Shown piece after piece: positions 215 to 61,810 of a DNA stretch of 64,000 nucleotides (positions are counted from its first letter, which is position 1; every line of letters starts with the position of its first letter). This DNA is from Eledone cirrhosa (lineage: Eukaryota). The position numbers were made by a program, and so were the translations under genes. Below the pieces are notes generated by a model, which did no database searches, had not been told where the DNA came from, and saw only the letters and a list, made by a program, of their open reading frames with translations. The stretch covers positions 38,874,001 to 38,938,000 of the forward strand of contig OZ024751.1 of assembly GCA_964016885.1 (NCBI GenBank), written 5' to 3'.

Positions 215-410
215 TAACGAAGGAATTGTGGTAAGGAACCAGATGGACCATACGCACCAAAGTACTCAATACTTAGGGTAGTAGAGTAGGTAATGGGAAC
301 AAGTATGGACCCCGAGGGCAGAGCCCAAGCCGTTTCGACGACTAATTCTGGAGTCCAGAATTAGCCGTCCAAACGGCTTGAGCTCTGCCGTCGGGGTCAT
401 ACTTGTTCCT
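215..410 (-). mobile_element. Foldback (palindrome + tail) non-autonomous element, family A, copy 1; PLE pseudo-LTR-like, with 3' half of a hammerhead
   Basis: Imperfect inverted repeat 296-409 (ggaacaagtatg..ctaattctg/cagaattag..catacttgttcc) plus ~80 nt tail 215-295. Homologous to 37551-37744 and 52558-52745. Flanked by (TA)n. Confidence 0.85.
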
Positions 411-10035: not shown

Positions 10036-10250
10036 TCCAGTGGATTGGCAGAATCGGTAGAGCCTCAAGCCAAATGCTTCATGACACATAATTAAAGCCC
10101 TTTATGTTCTGATTTCAAATCCTGGCTAGGTTAGCTTTACCTTTCAACCTTATGGAATCGGTAAAATCAAGTATCTATAAGCACTGGGGTCTATTTTATC
10201 GACTTTCCCATGACCCTTCAAATCGTTCGCTTTTTGCCTAAAATAGACAG
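10036..10250 (+). mobile_element. SINE family 1, older/longer subfamily
   Basis: gtggattggcagaatcggtagag..ttctgatttcaaatcc..acctttcaaccttatggaatcggtaaaat..ttgcctaaaatagac. Confidence 0.8.
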
Positions 10251-10259
10251 GATTACCAT

Positions 10260-10451
10260 TTCTGATTTAGTCATAAGGCCAATAATTTGGGAGGAGGGAC
10301 AAATCGATTAAATCGACCCCTGTGCGTTACTGGTACTTTGTTTTATAGACCCCGTAAGGATGAAAGGCAAAGCTAACCTCGGCGGAATTTGAAATCAGAA
10401 CGTAAAGAACCGTAACACTATGCTGCAAGACATGCTGTCCGACGCTCTACC
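10260..10451 (-). mobile_element. SINE family 1, longer subfamily
   Basis: Family core plus extra 'gggaggagggacaaatcgattaaatcgacccc' segment. Confidence 0.88.
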
Positions 10452-10645
10452 AATTCTGCCAATCCGTCGCCCAAAAAGTAGACACAATTATGATTCTGCA
10501 TGTATTTGCTTTATTTTCCCACCATTCATTCTAAATAGAGTTGATTCAACTTTGGAAGTATTATCCCTAATCTTTATACACGGAATGTATTCACCAAGAA
10601 ATTCAAAACAAGTTGCGTATATCTATTTTCATGTAATTATTCTCA

Positions 10646-10818
10646 TGGCAGTATCGGTAGAGGGTCGGACGCCATGCTTTCCAGCATAGTTACGTCCCTT
10701 TATGATCTGAGTTCAAATCCCGCCGAGGTTGACTTTGCTTTTCATCCTGACGGGGTCGATAAAATAAAGTACCAGTAATGCACTGGATAATTGCTGGCCT
10801 TGTGCCTAAAGTAGAAAC
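10646..10818 (+). mobile_element. SINE family 1
   Basis: tggcagtatcggtagagggtcggacgcc..gagttcaaatcccgccgagg..gtagaaac. Flanked by aattattctca. Confidence 0.95.
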
Positions 10819-10843
10819 AATTATTCTCACTGTATTCTACACT

Positions 10844-11011
10844 ATCAGTAGAGGGTCGGACGCCATGCTTTGACGCATAGAGTTACGGCCCTTGCCATTC
10901 TGTGTTCAAATCCCGCCGAGGTTAACTTTGCCTTTCATCCTTACGGGGTCGATAAAATAAAGTACCAGTAATGCACTGTGTAATTGCTGGCCTTGTGCCA
11001 AAAGTAGAAAC
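10844..11011 (+). mobile_element. SINE family 1, tandem second copy
   Basis: Near-identical to the preceding copy; followed by aattattctca. Confidence 0.93.
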
Positions 11012-11841
11012 AATTATTCTCATTGGATTATAACACACACAAACACACACAGAAACGTCCAGGTGTGTGTGTGTATGTGTGTGTGTGTGTGTGAGTGTGT
11101 GTATGTGTGTGTGTACGTGTGTGGTGTGTGTGAGTGTGTGTTTGTGTGTGCGTGTGTGTTTGAGTGCATTTATTTGTACGTGCAGTGAATATAGTAATGG
11201 TGTCCTTCCTGAAAATGATACGAGTTTCTCTTTGCTATCAAATTCCCCAGATATACATGATATGTTGAATTTTTCTTAATAAATATTAAAGTTAAGATAA
11301 CTTGTCTCCTGAAATCCAAGAGATAATTAATTATTGATAGGCTTCATCACATCAGAGTCTAAAGAAATAGAGATATCCTATATTAGCCCACTATTTCATT
11401 TAATTATTTAAAATCCAGGAATGTGTGGATATTTAGAAAGTTTCTGCATATTTTCTACCGTTCCTTGGCAACTGTCATAATATTTACCTGTTGTACATGC
11501 AAGACACAGATACAACAAATTCTAATTTTCCTCCTTAGAATCTCGAAATATCTTACTTACCGAAATAAATTAGTTTTAAGCAATATGATTTTAAATATAT
11601 TCATGCATCCAAACGTTTACAAAATGCTGCTGAAGAAGTTTTCACTATCAGTTAGACACATTTCATACAGGAGACAAAGAGAATTTTGTACATTCAATCT
11701 CTTGAAACCGGAAAATTATGTACAGATATCGACCTAATGATTCTCTGGGCATGAAACATGTTTGTGGTTAGAGGTGGGTGAATAATATTCTATTACAAAT
11801 GTTATTGGATTAAATCCTGAAAGCTCGTAATACGCCTTTTA

Positions 11842-12055
11842 TAATTGTTTGTGATTTAGACACAAGGCCAAATATTTGGGGGTTGGGGAGATTAGATTAA
11901 ATTGAAACCAGAACATTACTGGTACTTTATTTTATCGACACTGCAAGTATGAACGGCAAAACTAACCTCAGCGGGATTTGAACTTAGAACGTAAAGGGAC
12001 GTAACAATGCCACGAATCATGGTGTTTGACGTTCTACCGATACTAATATTTCACT
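11842..12055 (-). mobile_element. SINE family 1, longer subfamily
   Basis: acacaaggcc..actggtactttattttatcgac..gggatttgaac. Confidence 0.85.
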
Positions 12056-12128
12056 GCCCTTTCATAATATAATATATTACTTTTATATTGAAGATGTGGA
12101 CAATGATGTACGTACATCATAAATCTGT

Positions 12129-12290
12129 GGATTGGCAGTATCGGTAGAGGGTCAGACGCCATGCTTTGCCGCAAAGAGTTACGGCCCTTTATGTTCTGAG
12201 TTTGCCTTTCATCCTTACGGGGTCGATAACATAAAGTACCAGTAATACACTGGGATAATTGCTGGCCTTGTGCCAAAAGTAGAAACAATT
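12129..12290 (+). mobile_element. SINE family 1 with internal deletion through box B; 10-bp TSD
   Basis: ggattggcagtatcgg..ctgagtt^tgcctttcatcc. TSD ataaatctgt at 12119-12128 and 12291-12300. Confidence 0.92.
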
Positions 12291-12324
12291 ATAAATCTGT
12301 TTGCATTTCCATAAAGTTCGCCTC

Positions 12325-12458
12325 TACGTCCCTTTACGGACTGAATTCAAATCCCTCCAAGGTTATCTTTGCCTTTCATCCTTACGGGGTCGATAAAATA
12401 AAGTACCAGTAATGTACTGAGTATTTGCTGGCCTCGTGCCAAAAGTAGAAACAATTAT
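12325..12458 (+). mobile_element. SINE family 1, 5'-truncated
   Basis: tacgtccctttacgg..aattcaaatcc..gcctttcatccttacggggtcgataaaataaagtaccag..gtagaaac. Confidence 0.88.
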
Positions 12459-23034: not shown

Positions 23035-23311
23035 AAGCAAATGAATGAAGGAAGGAATTACAAGCCGTTAAAACGAGTTATTTATATAACTCTATAAAGA
23101 ACTTGTTTTAACGGCTTGTAAATCCTTCATCCATTCGCTTAATCCCGCTCTGCTTGAACTATACATTAAATATTAAATCTCCTCTAATATTTAACTCTGC
23201 TAACCCAAGAATTGAGCACACTCCGCTTCGGCTATTGGCATTTAGTAATCTGTATCGCACATCTCTGTATCCCTCTGCTTCCTCTTCTCTTACGGTATTA
23301 TACCCTCTTAT

Positions 23312-29140: not shown

Positions 29141-30116
29141 TTTAGAAGTAGGGAAATCTCAATTAATTTCAATATCCTTATTCCTCCTCATTCTCTCCCC
29201 TCGTTCTGTCTCCTCCTGGAATTGCATCAATCAGGATGTTACCCTTATTTACATAACTTTACTAAACGGATTTAATGCAGTGAATTGCCAGAGGCAACGG
29301 AGCGTCGGGGTATGTGTCTGTTCCTTCTCTCTGTGAAGCATGTTAGGAAACATTTTTGCCTTTTATCATTGCAAAGCCCCAATAGTGATGTTCTTGTTTG
29401 CCGGAGTTGTTAAAGAATCAAACAATAGGATTTATCGTATCTGGTACGGGTTTGCTTGATCTATGTGCAAATCCCACCTCCCATTAAGAGCTGTAAACGA
29501 CAGACATTATCAGCCATGGAAACAAAGTGTTTGGTCTGATCTAACGTTCGACTTCTTGCATTATTTTTCTTAATAAAAGACTACGGACAGTAGATGAATT
29601 CTTAGTAAATTATTTCATACATCAGACATGTAAAGAAAAATAATACAATATCAAAGTGAATAGAAGGGGAAATTTTGGAGATATGTTTCCTCAATGTCAA
29701 GAGTTAAGCACTGCATCTGTTTTCTAATGCAACATTCCGACCTGTTTTGTTCAATTAATTTTGATATGGAATATGATATTGAAATCTCTGTTATATATTT
29801 TGACTTTAAAACCGCTTGTCGGCTCTCATTATGTTATTTTATCTATAATATTTGTAAGAGAGGGGGAGATATGTATATGAGGACAACTTGTTGTACAGCT
29901 ATGTGATTTCTCTTATCGTTGATCTATGAAACTTCTTTATGGTCTACGTATGAATTTTTCAGCTAGTTATATATCTATATAATACGCAAGTTATTTGGTT
30001 TGTCTTCGAACAATGTCTCTCTCTCTCATTTCTCATGTAATATGCATGTGAGAATAATCTATGAATGAAAACTCCGATATTTAGCGCTCTTGATACGTGT
30101 ATATATATATATATAT

Positions 30117-30151
30117 AGGAAAATGTTTGACCCCGACGGCAGAGCTCAAGC
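30117..30151. mobile_element. Truncated arm of foldback family A
   Basis: aggaaaatgtttgaccccgacggcagagctcaagc directly after (TA)n, with the same junction as the other copies. Confidence 0.75.
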
Positions 30152-37515: not shown

Positions 37516-37550
<35 letters not shown>

Positions 37551-37553
<3 letters not shown>

Positions 37554-37741
37554 AACCAGTAAGACCCCGACAGCTGAGCTCAAGCCGTTTCGACGGCTAA
37601 TTCTGATCCAGAATTAGCCGTCGAAACGGCTTGAGCTCAGCTGTCGGGGTCTTACTGGTTCCTATTACCCACTCTACTACCCCACGTATTGAGTACTTTG
37701 GTGCGTTATGGTCCACCTGGTTCCTTACCACATTTCCTTCG

Positions 37742-37744
<3 letters not shown>
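37551..37744 (+). mobile_element. Foldback family A, copy 2 (perfect 55-bp arms, 3-nt loop, ~80-nt tail)
   Basis: 37551-37605 is the exact reverse complement of 37609-37663. (TA)n on both sides. Confidence 0.92.
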
Positions 37745-37817
<73 letters not shown>

Positions 37818-52557: not shown

Positions 52558-52745
52558 AGGAAAAAGTATGACCCCGACGGCAGAGCTCAAGCCGTTTCGA
52601 CCACTATTTCGAGAAATAGCCCTCGAAACGGCTTGAGGTCTGCCATCGGGGTCATACTTTTTCGTATTACCCACTCTACTACCCTAAGTATTGAGTACTC
52701 TGGTGTGTTATGGTCCATCTGGCTCCTTACCACAATTCCTTCGTT
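52558..52745 (+). mobile_element. Foldback family A, copy 3
   Basis: Imperfect palindrome 52558-52665 plus the same tail; (TA)n flanks. Confidence 0.88.
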
Positions 52746-55455: not shown

Positions 55456-55542
55456 AGATGGTCTCTAATTATTATTGACGAATATAGTCTCGACATAACA
55501 CTGACTAATATTGTGGAATAAAGTTTATATATATATATATAT

Positions 55543-55850
55543 GATATTAACAAATGGAAACTATATTTATAAAACCATATTTATTTTATTATACATATTT
55601 CAAGGACACCACGTTAAATTATGCTTTCATCAGACAAAATACAATATAGATCAGTTTTATAAATAAATATTGACATACCCTTAAAAAATGCAACCATTAC
55701 TGTTGGAAGCTCCCGGATAATTTAACGTGGTGTCCTTGAAATATGTATAATAAAATAAATATGGTTTTATAAATATAGTTTCCATTTGTTAATATCGTAT
55801 GTTTACTCCAAATACTTGTTGAGTGCTTTATATCAGTTATAAAAATATTT
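55543..55850 (+). mobile_element. Foldback family B, copy 1 (inverted pLTR-like arms + tail)
   Basis: 55543-55622 is the reverse complement of 55717-55796. Tail gtatgtttactccaaatacttgttgagtgc. Homologous to 56834-57240. Confidence 0.88.
55583..55640 (-). ncRNA. Type I minimal hammerhead ribozyme, canonical core
   Basis: attttgt-CTGATGA-aag[19 nt]ctt-GAAA-tatgta-TA-ataaaat. 7-bp stem I; predicted cleavage between 55590 and 55589. Confidence 0.75.
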
Positions 55851-56273
55851 GCAATTTAAATAGAACTTTTGTATATATATATATGAATATTTGTGCGTAT
55901 GTTTCTTTGAGTTGGATATCCGTACGTATGCAAGAGGCCGAGCATTCCAGAGAGGCTCACATTTTATGTAGTTCTCAGAAAGAGATTACAGGTGCAACTC
56001 ATTTTCGCCAGCTTAGTGGATTTGAAAACTGTCAGTTAATGTGCATTGAATAAGGACAAAGTGTGCCGAGGGGGCATCGAACTCACTATGCACTGAGCCA
56101 GATTCCATCAAGCAGACATACACACATGATTTTTAACATATATCTAAATATAATTCCCTCGTTCATATCCAAGGAATACCTCGCACCAAAAATATATATA
56201 ATTTATAAGCACGGAGTAGGGAAAAATCAAATATATATGTATGTAATTAAGGAAGGAAAGCTTGTCGAATAGA

Positions 56274-56769: not shown

Positions 56770-56836
<67 letters not shown>

Positions 56837-56874
56837 ATTAAATAAATGGAAACTATATTTATAAAACCATATCT

Positions 56875-56938
56875 ATTTCATTATATATATTTCAGGGATA
56901 TCATATTAACAATATGCTATGCCTTCCTCAGACAAAAT
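56875..56938 (-). ncRNA. Hammerhead ribozyme (mirror copy in left arm)
   Basis: Exact reverse complement of 57079-57142. Confidence 0.7.
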
Positions 56939-57078
56939 ACAATATAAACAGTTTTATAGATAAATAGATTTGACATACCGTACAACATCGACTTGTATTT
57001 GAAAATTCAACTTTTCAAATACAAGTCGATGTTGTACGGTATGTCAAATCTATTTATCTATAAAACTGTTTATATTGT

Positions 57079-57142
57079 ATTTTGTCTGAGGAAGGCATAG
57101 CATATTGTTAATATGATATCCCTGAAATATATATAATGAAAT
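57079..57142 (+). ncRNA. Type I minimal hammerhead ribozyme
   Basis: attttgt-CTGAGGA-agg[..catatt gtt aatatg..]cct-GAAA-tatata-TA-atgaaat. Palindromic stem III loop. Confidence 0.72.
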
Positions 57143-57272
57143 AGATATGGTTTTATAAATATAGTTTCCATTTATTTAATATCGTAAATATACTCCAAAT
57201 ACTTGTCGAGTGCTTTTATATCAGTTATTAATATTTACTAGTTGTAACCCAACAATTTAAATATAACTTTCC

Positions 57273-60699: not shown

Positions 60700-61740
60700 G
60701 AACCATGCTAGGACATCACAGCTTGTCGTTCTTTAACTCGATTCATAGATCAGGTTGTTTTTGTTGTGAGAGATGACATCGTATTATATTCCAGAAGTGT
60801 GTGTTTGATTAAGGGGAGTTAATGCGTAAGGGGAGGTAACTAGCTGATTTCTATATTTAAATTTATTATCCTAAAGTACATTAATGGTGTCTCAAATGAG
60901 TTCCCATCATATAAGGTTATAAAAAATATCTAAATTTAAGTATCTTATCTATAAATTACAGTGTAGTCTATCGAGAAGTACTAAAGGTGTTCATATTAGG
61001 ATGAATACCTTTTATCATAGAGTGCCCCCACCGAACATTCCACATGAAGTGTCAGATCTCCAAATCAATGATCTTTGTAAGTGTAGTCCACCCGCAGGAC
61101 CTGGCAGGGTCTTATTAGAATCACTTCTATATATGACTCCTGGTAAGTTCTGGGTCATTGCATGACTGATTGCATGGCAAAGTTAAATATCACTCGGGTA
61201 GTCCAGAGATCAATTCTCACTTACAAAGACACTGATCTGACCATCAAGTCATACATGTATTTATAACTCATACATCACCTGTACATAATTCATTGCACTC
61301 AGCATAAAGATTATATAGCTCTTTTATGTTAATAAATTAATTACTTAATCTTCCATTTATCCAATGATGGCACTACATACACAGGACAATGTCATACAAC
61401 CAATTCCGTGCTTAAAGTTTACATTGGTGTAATGTAGTCTAAGAAATTGAAGGCCAATATACCAAAAGTAGAAGTACATGGGGATATCTCCAAGGTAAAA
61501 GGTACTAGGAGGATGTCACTATTTGCGTTAAAGAAGATTAATGGGTGTGGAGATGAGGTGTAAGGTGTGCCCCTGATGATTGCTGATAGAGGTGGTGACG
61601 GGTTCAAGTCTGACATTGTTATATATTGGGTTTAAAGTTTTGGAAGGAGTGTCGGAAGCGATGTTGGCAAGACGCGAACACTTCTAATTTTTTATTAAGG
61701 AGGTTATGGTTTGAGAAGATGATAGTATGGGTCTCTAGTA
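60700..61740 (-). pseudogene. Possible decayed Penelope-like retroelement RT / GIY-YIG relic
   Basis: ORF 61419-61616 contains FFNANSDILLVPFTLEIS..FNFLDYIT, resembling the PLE RT pattern (LN..hp.i.FT.E.E...l.FLDv.I). Downstream on the same strand is LPGVIYR (~61126-61146), resembling the GIY half-motif. An HHR-bearing repeat follows 3' at 60.1 kb. Boundaries approximate. Confidence 0.45.
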
Positions 61741-61810
61741 GACAGAGGTTACAAAATTATACAAAAATATACATATATATATATATATATTTATAATAAT
61801 TACATATACT

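Follow-up and report, generated by a model that had tools for sequence, protein, structure and literature searches.

The palindrome analyzed here lies in a window of 64,000 nt (C11:38874001-38938000; by the window we mean this whole stretch) and is one ordinary stump of a Penelope-like element (PLE), whose two-armed stumps number over ten thousand in the 3.0-Gb genome that was searched. It is a short insertion form, in which two head-to-head copies of the ribozyme-bearing end of the element sit in (TA)n, likely as two cDNAs that were made off the 5′ end of one RNA and joined. We infer that the main axis of such palindromes would correspond to the beginning of the RNA, and that the hammerhead ribozyme would set an axis by cutting in a minority of them only.

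Positions along the element are given relative to C17, the cleavage nucleotide of the hammerhead, as 0, with negative numbers on its 5′ side. The near-perfect palindrome at 37552-37662 (117 nt including TA, 97% self-complementary, BLAST E 1e-55) is extended to 37742 by a one-sided 80-nt tail, and the whole unit is flanked by (TA)n runs. The features of this unit and of its siblings in the window are as follows.

37520..37551, no strand: left target microsatellite, (TA)16, from the sequence
37552..37605, minus strand: tail-less arm, parent +17 to -36, with C17 at 37569, from comparison with the parent
37606, no strand: single untemplated base, the palindrome axis, where the arms join, from the sequence
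37607..37662, plus strand: tail-bearing arm, parent -38 to +17, from comparison with the parent
37615-37622, plus strand: 3′ strand of stem II, in the tail-bearing arm
37623-37626, plus strand: GAAA, in the tail-bearing arm
37626-37644, plus strand: stem III with its palindromic loop, in the tail-bearing arm
37645, plus strand: C17, in the tail-bearing arm
37646-37662, plus strand: 3′ strand of stem I, in the tail-bearing arm
37663..37742, plus strand: 80-nt tail, parent +18 to +97
37743..37814, no strand: right target microsatellite, (TA)n, from the sequence
217..409, minus strand: second, older copy, with its tail arm on the minus strand
52559..52744, plus strand: third copy, of an older subfamily, whose arms stop near -34 and -35
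30115..30151, minus strand: fragment, a lone tail-less arm adjoining (TA)9

The window arms are 98-100% identical to the parent element described below, the tail-less arm of the palindrome matching the parent array L287 at 100% over 57 nt, and this arm is presumably a cDNA that started at the inner RT start site. In full-length parents, the tail continues into the 5′ leader of the ORF. The original prediction had described a foldback with half of a hammerhead ribozyme in each arm, and both the palindrome and the half-ribozyme are real: each arm contains GAAA, a stem III of 5-6 bp with the palindromic loop GAGCTC, GUC, and the stem I 3′ strand, and the parent supplies the rest of the ribozyme. 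As had also been noticed, both arms of the window copies lack the 5′ half of the core and the stem I 5′ strand, and the window copy is not a complete hammerhead, the full core being on neither strand. The two further copies that had been pointed out were found at 217-409 and 52559-52744, with an identical layout and identities of 88% and 84%; in the former, the tail-less arm begins at parent A-40 and is preceded by G. Because the window copies are single, inverted, and made up of half-ribozymes, they are not non-LTR retrozymes, which need short non-coding tandem units with complete ribozymes. A repeat search of the window gave microsatellites only, and an Rfam search of it gave no hammerhead among the best 150 of 259 matches, all being of the miRNA type and lying on repeats or hairpins.

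The non-palindromic parent is a 3.5-kb unit with an ORF for a 719-aa protein that combines RT and GIY-YIG, and it also occurs in tandem arrays. It was located via the fillers of CUGANGA matches, and patterns of upstream sequence gave 1,593 and 5,187 matches, the larger set containing some double listings. The protein is encoded at L139:3580-5739, a locus whose 3′ UTR is shorter than that in the array, and its ORF is likewise intact in a tandem array with a period of 3,543 bp. Four-unit head-to-tail arrays with a period of ~3.54 kb (L287-L290, at C1:91.48 Mb and 437.20 Mb; the ORFs of L287 are 717-719 aa) are likely active donors. Of 7,996 scored candidates, 2,054 proved to be relatives of the protein, almost all of them unnamed, and its top homologue bears PF01541; Pfam and PDB sequence searches with the protein itself gave no match. 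The best Foldseek match of the protein model (pLDDT 93) is telomerase TERT (E 1.6e-8, TM 0.33-0.39). As in EN+ PLEs, a single ORF thus carries a telomerase-like RT, and the GIY-YIG endonuclease (VIY...YIG, residues 591-608) is encoded in the same ORF. The insertions have the layout of EN+ PLEs as well, with tandem or partial-tandem pLTRs, an inverted 5′-truncated copy, and a one-sided tail, and the preference for (TA)n was seen as pure TA directly after 87 of 100 tail ends. It is virtually certain that the palindrome family is a PLE. By its motifs (RWR at 37, DKT at 117, CNCPDRSIC at 572, CNLC at 670, and CKH at 698, with no CCHH and a single Cys between GIY and YIG) and its (TA)n targets, the parent would be a young PLE of the Hydra clade. 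The Nematis clade, considered first, was dropped, and the definition of the Hydra clade in the accessible text of PMC8557442 fits the motifs. Contigs from four sequencing runs cover the element in organism A and contain opposite-strand joints, being uninformative on transcription starts; runs X5 and X6, from other organisms, gave 3 and 6 contigs, which were not counted as evidence.

The element is a new family within the known Hydra clade, set apart by comparison of motifs and features, and its insertion layout was already known. As described in the accessible part of PMC8557442 (Craig et al. 2021), Hydra-clade PLEs such as Hydra-1_Obim are alike in having a single ORF for RT with GIY-YIG at the C terminus, and share with it the RWK-like, DKT, CxCX5C, CxxC, and CxH motifs without CCHH, the (TA)n targets, and a hammerhead in the repeat end. 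However, their units are under 3 kb, compared with 3.5 kb here, and Hydra-1_Obim is listed in the supplement with a CUGAAGAG core, whereas the present family combines a long stem II with a U3-A8 core. A search of the accessible portion of that supplement for three DNA motifs and one peptide motif of the present family gave 0 occurrences.

The original view that the family is not a group of MITEs also holds, given that the arms belong to an RT-encoding element whose parent completes the ribozyme. The short, palindromic, high-copy, and TA-flanked form would suit a DNA-transposon MITE in which the GAAAC..GUC match had arisen by chance, but the probability of this is close to nil, because the arms are the 3′ end of the RT-encoding element and because the inner ends vary while the outer ends are fixed and unequal. 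A MITE with terminal inverted repeats shared with a DNA transposase element was rejected on the same grounds, the outer ends being unequal by 80 nt.

In the parent, stem I, UUGANAA, a long stem II, GAAA, stem III, GUC, and stem I follow one another in this order and make up a complete type I hammerhead fold with the U3-A8 core UUGANAA, preceded by a stem I strand that ends in ACCCC. A parent reading gacccc-CUGANGA had been predicted; a non-palindromic parent with the other half does exist, but it reads UUGANAA after ...ACCCC, and a search for a literal CUGANGA parent gave 34 genome matches, of which the 30 inspected were all junction or flank accidents. The U3-A8 core is a PLE hammerhead variant described in the accessible text of PMC4209133, in which the hammerheads of the Schistosoma PLE Cercyon share the U3-A8 swap, G10.1-C11.1, and a palindromic stem III loop with the present one, whereas here stem III is a stable helix of 5-6 bp and a stem II extension of ~45 nt holds the putative start site discussed below. 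When the core was left free in the search, which gave 73 distinct rows including a few junction artefacts, positions 4, 5, 6, 8, and 9 were kept in 69-71 rows, U stood at position 3 in 63 rows and C in 7, and all four bases occurred at position 7 (G 45, A 13, U 9, C 6). The three-way junction was the MFE fold in 4 of the 6 parents folded, and the other 2 fold into an inactive alternative with GAAA in a competing hairpin. The parent fold was no stabler than shuffles (z -0.41), and 34 close sequences of this young family gave 84.5% paired cells with no significant covariation; the stem II covariation predicted between subfamilies (AATT and its partner) did not appear, and an Rfam search of the parent gave no hammerhead match. 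In the half-ribozyme, GAAA can be taken up by a competing hairpin, which argues against the earlier idea that the missing half acts in trans.

Short palindromes with their axis in stem II gave 10,719 exact matches genome-wide, which bears out the clustering expected in this region. The axis was originally placed in a central hairpin at stem II; it does lie within the stem II of the parent, but the hairpin is only the join of the two arms and not the stem II of the parent. Outer ends are fixed at +97 for the tail arm and +17 for the tail-less arm. For the 4,981 tail arms that belong to the window's subtype, inner ends were counted in the first 100 by chromosome order, a few of these rows being linked, with an anchor that requires -5 to +29 and so excludes shorter copies; the samples throughout are first matches on C1-C3, with some linked copies, and the first 30 loci, biased by the query start, were left out of the counts. 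Sixty-nine tail arms ended at -33 to -44, 18 at -5 to -30, 0 at -45 to -132, and 13 beyond. The wall at -33 to -44, which sits immediately beyond the GC-rich part of stem II, at an inner hairpin, stops 69 of the 82 tail arms that reach it, with ends spread over 12 nt. Cleavage at the GUC of -39 to -37 was rejected as its cause, given that 35 of the 100 tail arms extend beyond, to -39..-44. Full-length copies were taken as 83 loci whose tail continues into the ORF, drawn from the 100 matches listed first out of 232, with inner array units counted once. Sixty of them reach -30, of which 11 stop at -30 to -45 and 48 pass -60, so that stopping at the wall is far rarer than in tail-started copies (11/60 vs 69/82, P = 1e-15). 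Among 18 junctions of template jumps, 15 leave at -36 to -43 (one of these, L327, being an internal skip) and 3 at +1. In six short tandem stumps (L261, L263, L264, L278, L330, and L332), a copy ending 140-370 nt past the cut site precedes the arm, which suggests short transcripts and end-to-end template jumps.

The two arms of a palindrome are related in length and sequence. Of 79 pairs, 33 have the longer arm on the tail side and 28 on the tail-less side, and 18 have arms of equal length; among 16 long pairs that were selected, the tail-less arm exceeds its partner by 100-2,500 nt in 8 and the tail arm is the longer in 6. None of 77 short tail arms has a long partner, all 7 long ones with a visible partner do, and arm lengths within pairs are correlated. 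The partner arm is of the same subtype in 65 of 73 rows read and of another subtype in 1, and the arms share private variants (those of L140 are 100% identical over 723 nt). Common private variants and correlated lengths would be expected if a single cDNA folded back on stem II and primed itself, with endonuclease resolution making the tail-less end. This is the snap-back of the original prediction, and self-priming is also how the accessible text of PMC3846280 reads PLE junction palindromes, but the present data favor two cDNAs, and we regard snap-back as highly improbable. The observed ends offer no fold-back: in the DNA fold, the 3′ end is unpaired in cDNAs that end at -34 to -44, and these cDNAs stop ~25 nt before the stem II partner strand at -68 to -76. 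Self-priming yields copies no longer than the template, so a tail-less arm cannot have been copied from the tail arm where it is the longer one (28/79 short pairs and 8/16 long pairs), and the tail, being absent from the tail-less arm, cannot have been copied from that arm. Deletion at the tip could blur short pairs, but not kilobase differences. Moreover, each arm carries its own untemplated base, palindromes at the cut site (+1) arise without a hairpin, and those of a sister family have their axis well upstream of an intact ribozyme. The genome sequence of the present family thus speaks against self-priming as the origin of the inverted arm.

We are confident that two cDNAs are involved, one primed from each target strand. 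This reading fits the observation that either arm can be the longer, the cut-site palindromes, and the layout of the sister family, and it matches the in vitro behavior of PAc (Poseidon of Anolis; Frangieh et al. 2024, PMC11167929), for which the accessible text reports that both target strands are cut and extended. In PAc, the tail is delimited by two internal sites of RT initiation, which lie immediately 3′ of the ribozyme, where the ORF region begins. The inner end of the inverted arm is not treated in the covered text of that study.

The bases at the inner ends point to the origin of the wall. Solo copies joined to (TA)n, counted by hand in 100 of 173 listed, have before A-40 a G in 53, an A in 10, a C in 5, and the templated T in 32, the untemplated base being G in 53 of 68. 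Where both arms reach -40 (100 of 2,816 listed), 16 fillers have C as their first base, 13 have G as their last, and 10 have both, and 5 of the 6 single-base fillers are C/G; some of the C..G fillers (CAG, CTG) could be re-primed pieces of the arms. A-40 and A-44 lie in contexts that we take to be initiator-like. In the accessible text of PMC11702581, an extra G at the 5′ junctions of full-length L1 is the mark of a copied cap. From these DNA footprints, a capped RNA probably starts inside stem II, at A-40 with A-44 and A-35 as neighbors. As a control, the 43 untemplated bases before A-35 were G in 21, T in 21, and A in 1; G is not unique to -40, which weakens a single-site reading, and several starts or a local G bias are needed. 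The 48 of 60 full-length copies that pass the supposed start would need read-through RNA or template transfer. L1 shares the untemplated G at the RNA 5′ end, and its opposite-orientation inserts are read in the accessible text of PMC11702581 as two ligated RT-extended ends, as here. It primes, however, at the poly(A) end, whereas the stumps marked by the G here are 60-140 nt long, as RT starts close to the RNA 5′ end.

Another possibility is that the two cDNAs are joined as above, with a wall that reflects stalling or release of RT inside stem II, for example through re-forming of the RNA stem and displacement of the cDNA, rather than a start. The ribozyme structure would then set the axis, as originally thought, without self-priming. 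The position of the wall just past the GC-rich part of stem II, the scatter of the ends over 12 nt, and the G also before -35 are in its favor. A stall should, however, act whenever RT meets stem II, and the difference between 11/60 and 69/82 argues against it, the same structure being passed by 48 of 60 full-length copies. The lack of ends at -45 to -132 and the lack of pairs split into one short and one long arm (0/77) speak against it too, and it leaves G at -40 vs A/T at +1 unexplained. We consider a stall unlikely. Still less likely is that the RNA end at about -40 is made by processing, that is, by a host nuclease cut of the long stem II, by recapping after a cut, or at an acceptor-like site (AG at -40/-39). 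The sequence before -38 resembles a 3′ splice site, with a pyrimidine run followed by YAG, a likeness that would favor processing. Introns of the 5′ UTR at the ribozyme are known in other PLEs (PMC4209133 and PMC8557442, in their accessible parts). However, splicing predicts ends at -38 joined to a common upstream exon, and only 3 of 100 tail arms end at -38, with no common upstream piece seen, and A/T, as seen at +1, would be expected at an uncapped cut end.

A search for palindromes centered near C17, prompted by the full-length copies and by the jumps at 0/+1, gave 301 matches, of which 100 were listed and counted. Both arms lie at +1 with a one-base filler in 15 loci (9 A, 5 T, and 1 C/G, hand-counted), with a longer filler in 11, and with none in 19, so that 26 of the 100 listed rows have an untemplated filler between arms exactly at +1. 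In most of the other listed rows, the turn falls in short repeats or in the palindromic stem III loop, and a filler between arms that both end at 0 to -4 was seen at a single listed locus, which is a jump product. All 20 of the fetched cut-site loci are ordinary TA-flanked, tailed insertions, and the class amounts to ~2-3% of the main class (135 of some 5,000, an estimate from non-identical patterns). RT adds A/T at a blunt uncapped end. C/G makes up 5 of 6 single-base fillers at -40 vs 1 of 15 at +1 (P = 0.002). These footprints in the DNA make it quite likely that the ribozyme cleaves in vivo at +1. There is some lesser chance that the +1 class alone comes from a stall at the base of stem III, which starts 2 nt further on, or from microhomology deletion of the centers of longer palindromes, given that 19 of 45 such rows among the 100 listed of 301 are gapless joins also explicable by the 2-bp microhomology CG. 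The 26 listed rows with untemplated fillers and both arms exactly at +1, the single such locus at 0 to -4, and the three template jumps that leave at +1 argue against this and for cleavage. A third axis class, e.g., C1:93348214, has its center in the palindromic stem III loop, as would result from annealing of two cDNAs through the loop or from deletion of the center there.

The mechanism that we propose is as follows. The endonuclease would cut both strands of (TA)n, and RT would start at two internal sites. Transcription would start at A-40, or at its neighbors A-44 and A-35, inside stem II, and the 5′ copy in the RNA would therefore be a capped half-ribozyme with no cutting in cis, so that both RT start sites would be kept. 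These sites would lie 60 and 140 nt from the RNA 5′ end, giving only 60- and 140-nt cDNAs. RT would copy the cap as an extra base and then stop, and the two cDNAs, both having run off the end, would be united by end-joining with a loss of 0-6 nt to yield the palindrome. RNA that runs through a complete ribozyme would be cut after C17, its uncapped 3′ product leading to the +1 class, and long copies would arise on read-through RNA of tandem arrays, from start sites lying downstream. We propose only tentatively, as somewhat doubtful, that one sequence acts as the promoter at the RNA 5′ end and as a working ribozyme at the 3′ end, the ribozyme being a brake and the palindromes a fossil 5′-end map of in vivo cleavage. 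If this were the case, cleavage would remove downstream RT start sites and leave the 5′-proximal ones, most transposition would end in stumps of 60-140 nt, and the short cDNA would resemble strong-stop DNA able to jump to another RNA end.

As far as the accessible parts of PMC3846280 and PMC8557442 describe them, EN+ PLE insertions share the head-to-head arms, the one-sided tail, and the partial tandems; their inverted pLTR is 5′-truncated and their tail is 30-40 nt, compared with 80 nt here, and the inner ends of the present family lie at two fixed points rather than at random truncations. Pairs of ribozymes on opposite strands, 100-700 bp apart, are described in Schistosoma in the accessible text of PMC4209133, which gives no in vivo evidence for PLE hammerhead cleavage in that text. 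The PAc study, in its accessible text, found no RNA-seq reads ending at the cut site, whereas here genome copies end there. Searches of the openly accessible literature gave no report of a capped start inside a PLE ribozyme or of copies ending at its cut site, and the reading of the axes as a putative capped start and a cleavage footprint would be new, the insertion layout being known. For the in vivo cutting of PLE hammerheads, it would offer a footprint with a built-in control, G at one RNA end and A/T at the other. The family gives exact positions (-40, +1, +17, and +97) and an intact 719-aa protein for testing, and tabulation of axes is applicable to any PLE family.

Other elements were seen in the window and at the fetched loci. 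A second (TA)n family of the same design, the sister family mentioned above (window 56825-57272 and 55539-55870), consists of a palindrome with an 80-nt one-sided tail and has a complete CUGA(U/G)GA hammerhead-like motif in each arm, the axis lying 50-100 nt upstream of the motif; many copies of it lie beside the fetched loci, their outer ends falling on two fixed points. At 23043-23136, a third short palindrome flanked by TA has a one-sided extension and is 85% self-complementary. The 42-aa fragment at 61628-61753 on the minus strand, 48% identical to the C-terminal part of the parent endonuclease, is a piece of another PLE family. L327 (C2:356029300-356033000) is a seven-unit tandem array with a 299-bp period derived from the present family, each unit containing a ribozyme with stem II shortened by the -64 to -40 skip, the tail, and the ORF start; it has the look of a retrozyme that is emerging from a PLE, and it fits a non-LTR retrozyme better than the window copies do. 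Broken ORFs at L105:3-3475 have motifs that we take to be Helitron-like Rep and PIF1 helicase-like, and other retroelement ORFs, including pieces of PLE-like RT and GIY-YIG, lie at L099:85-1011, L100:7951-9000, and L098:2684-5518. A cluster of dispersed repeats of 140-430 nt in both orientations, SINE-like by look, occupies 10042-12419 of the window.
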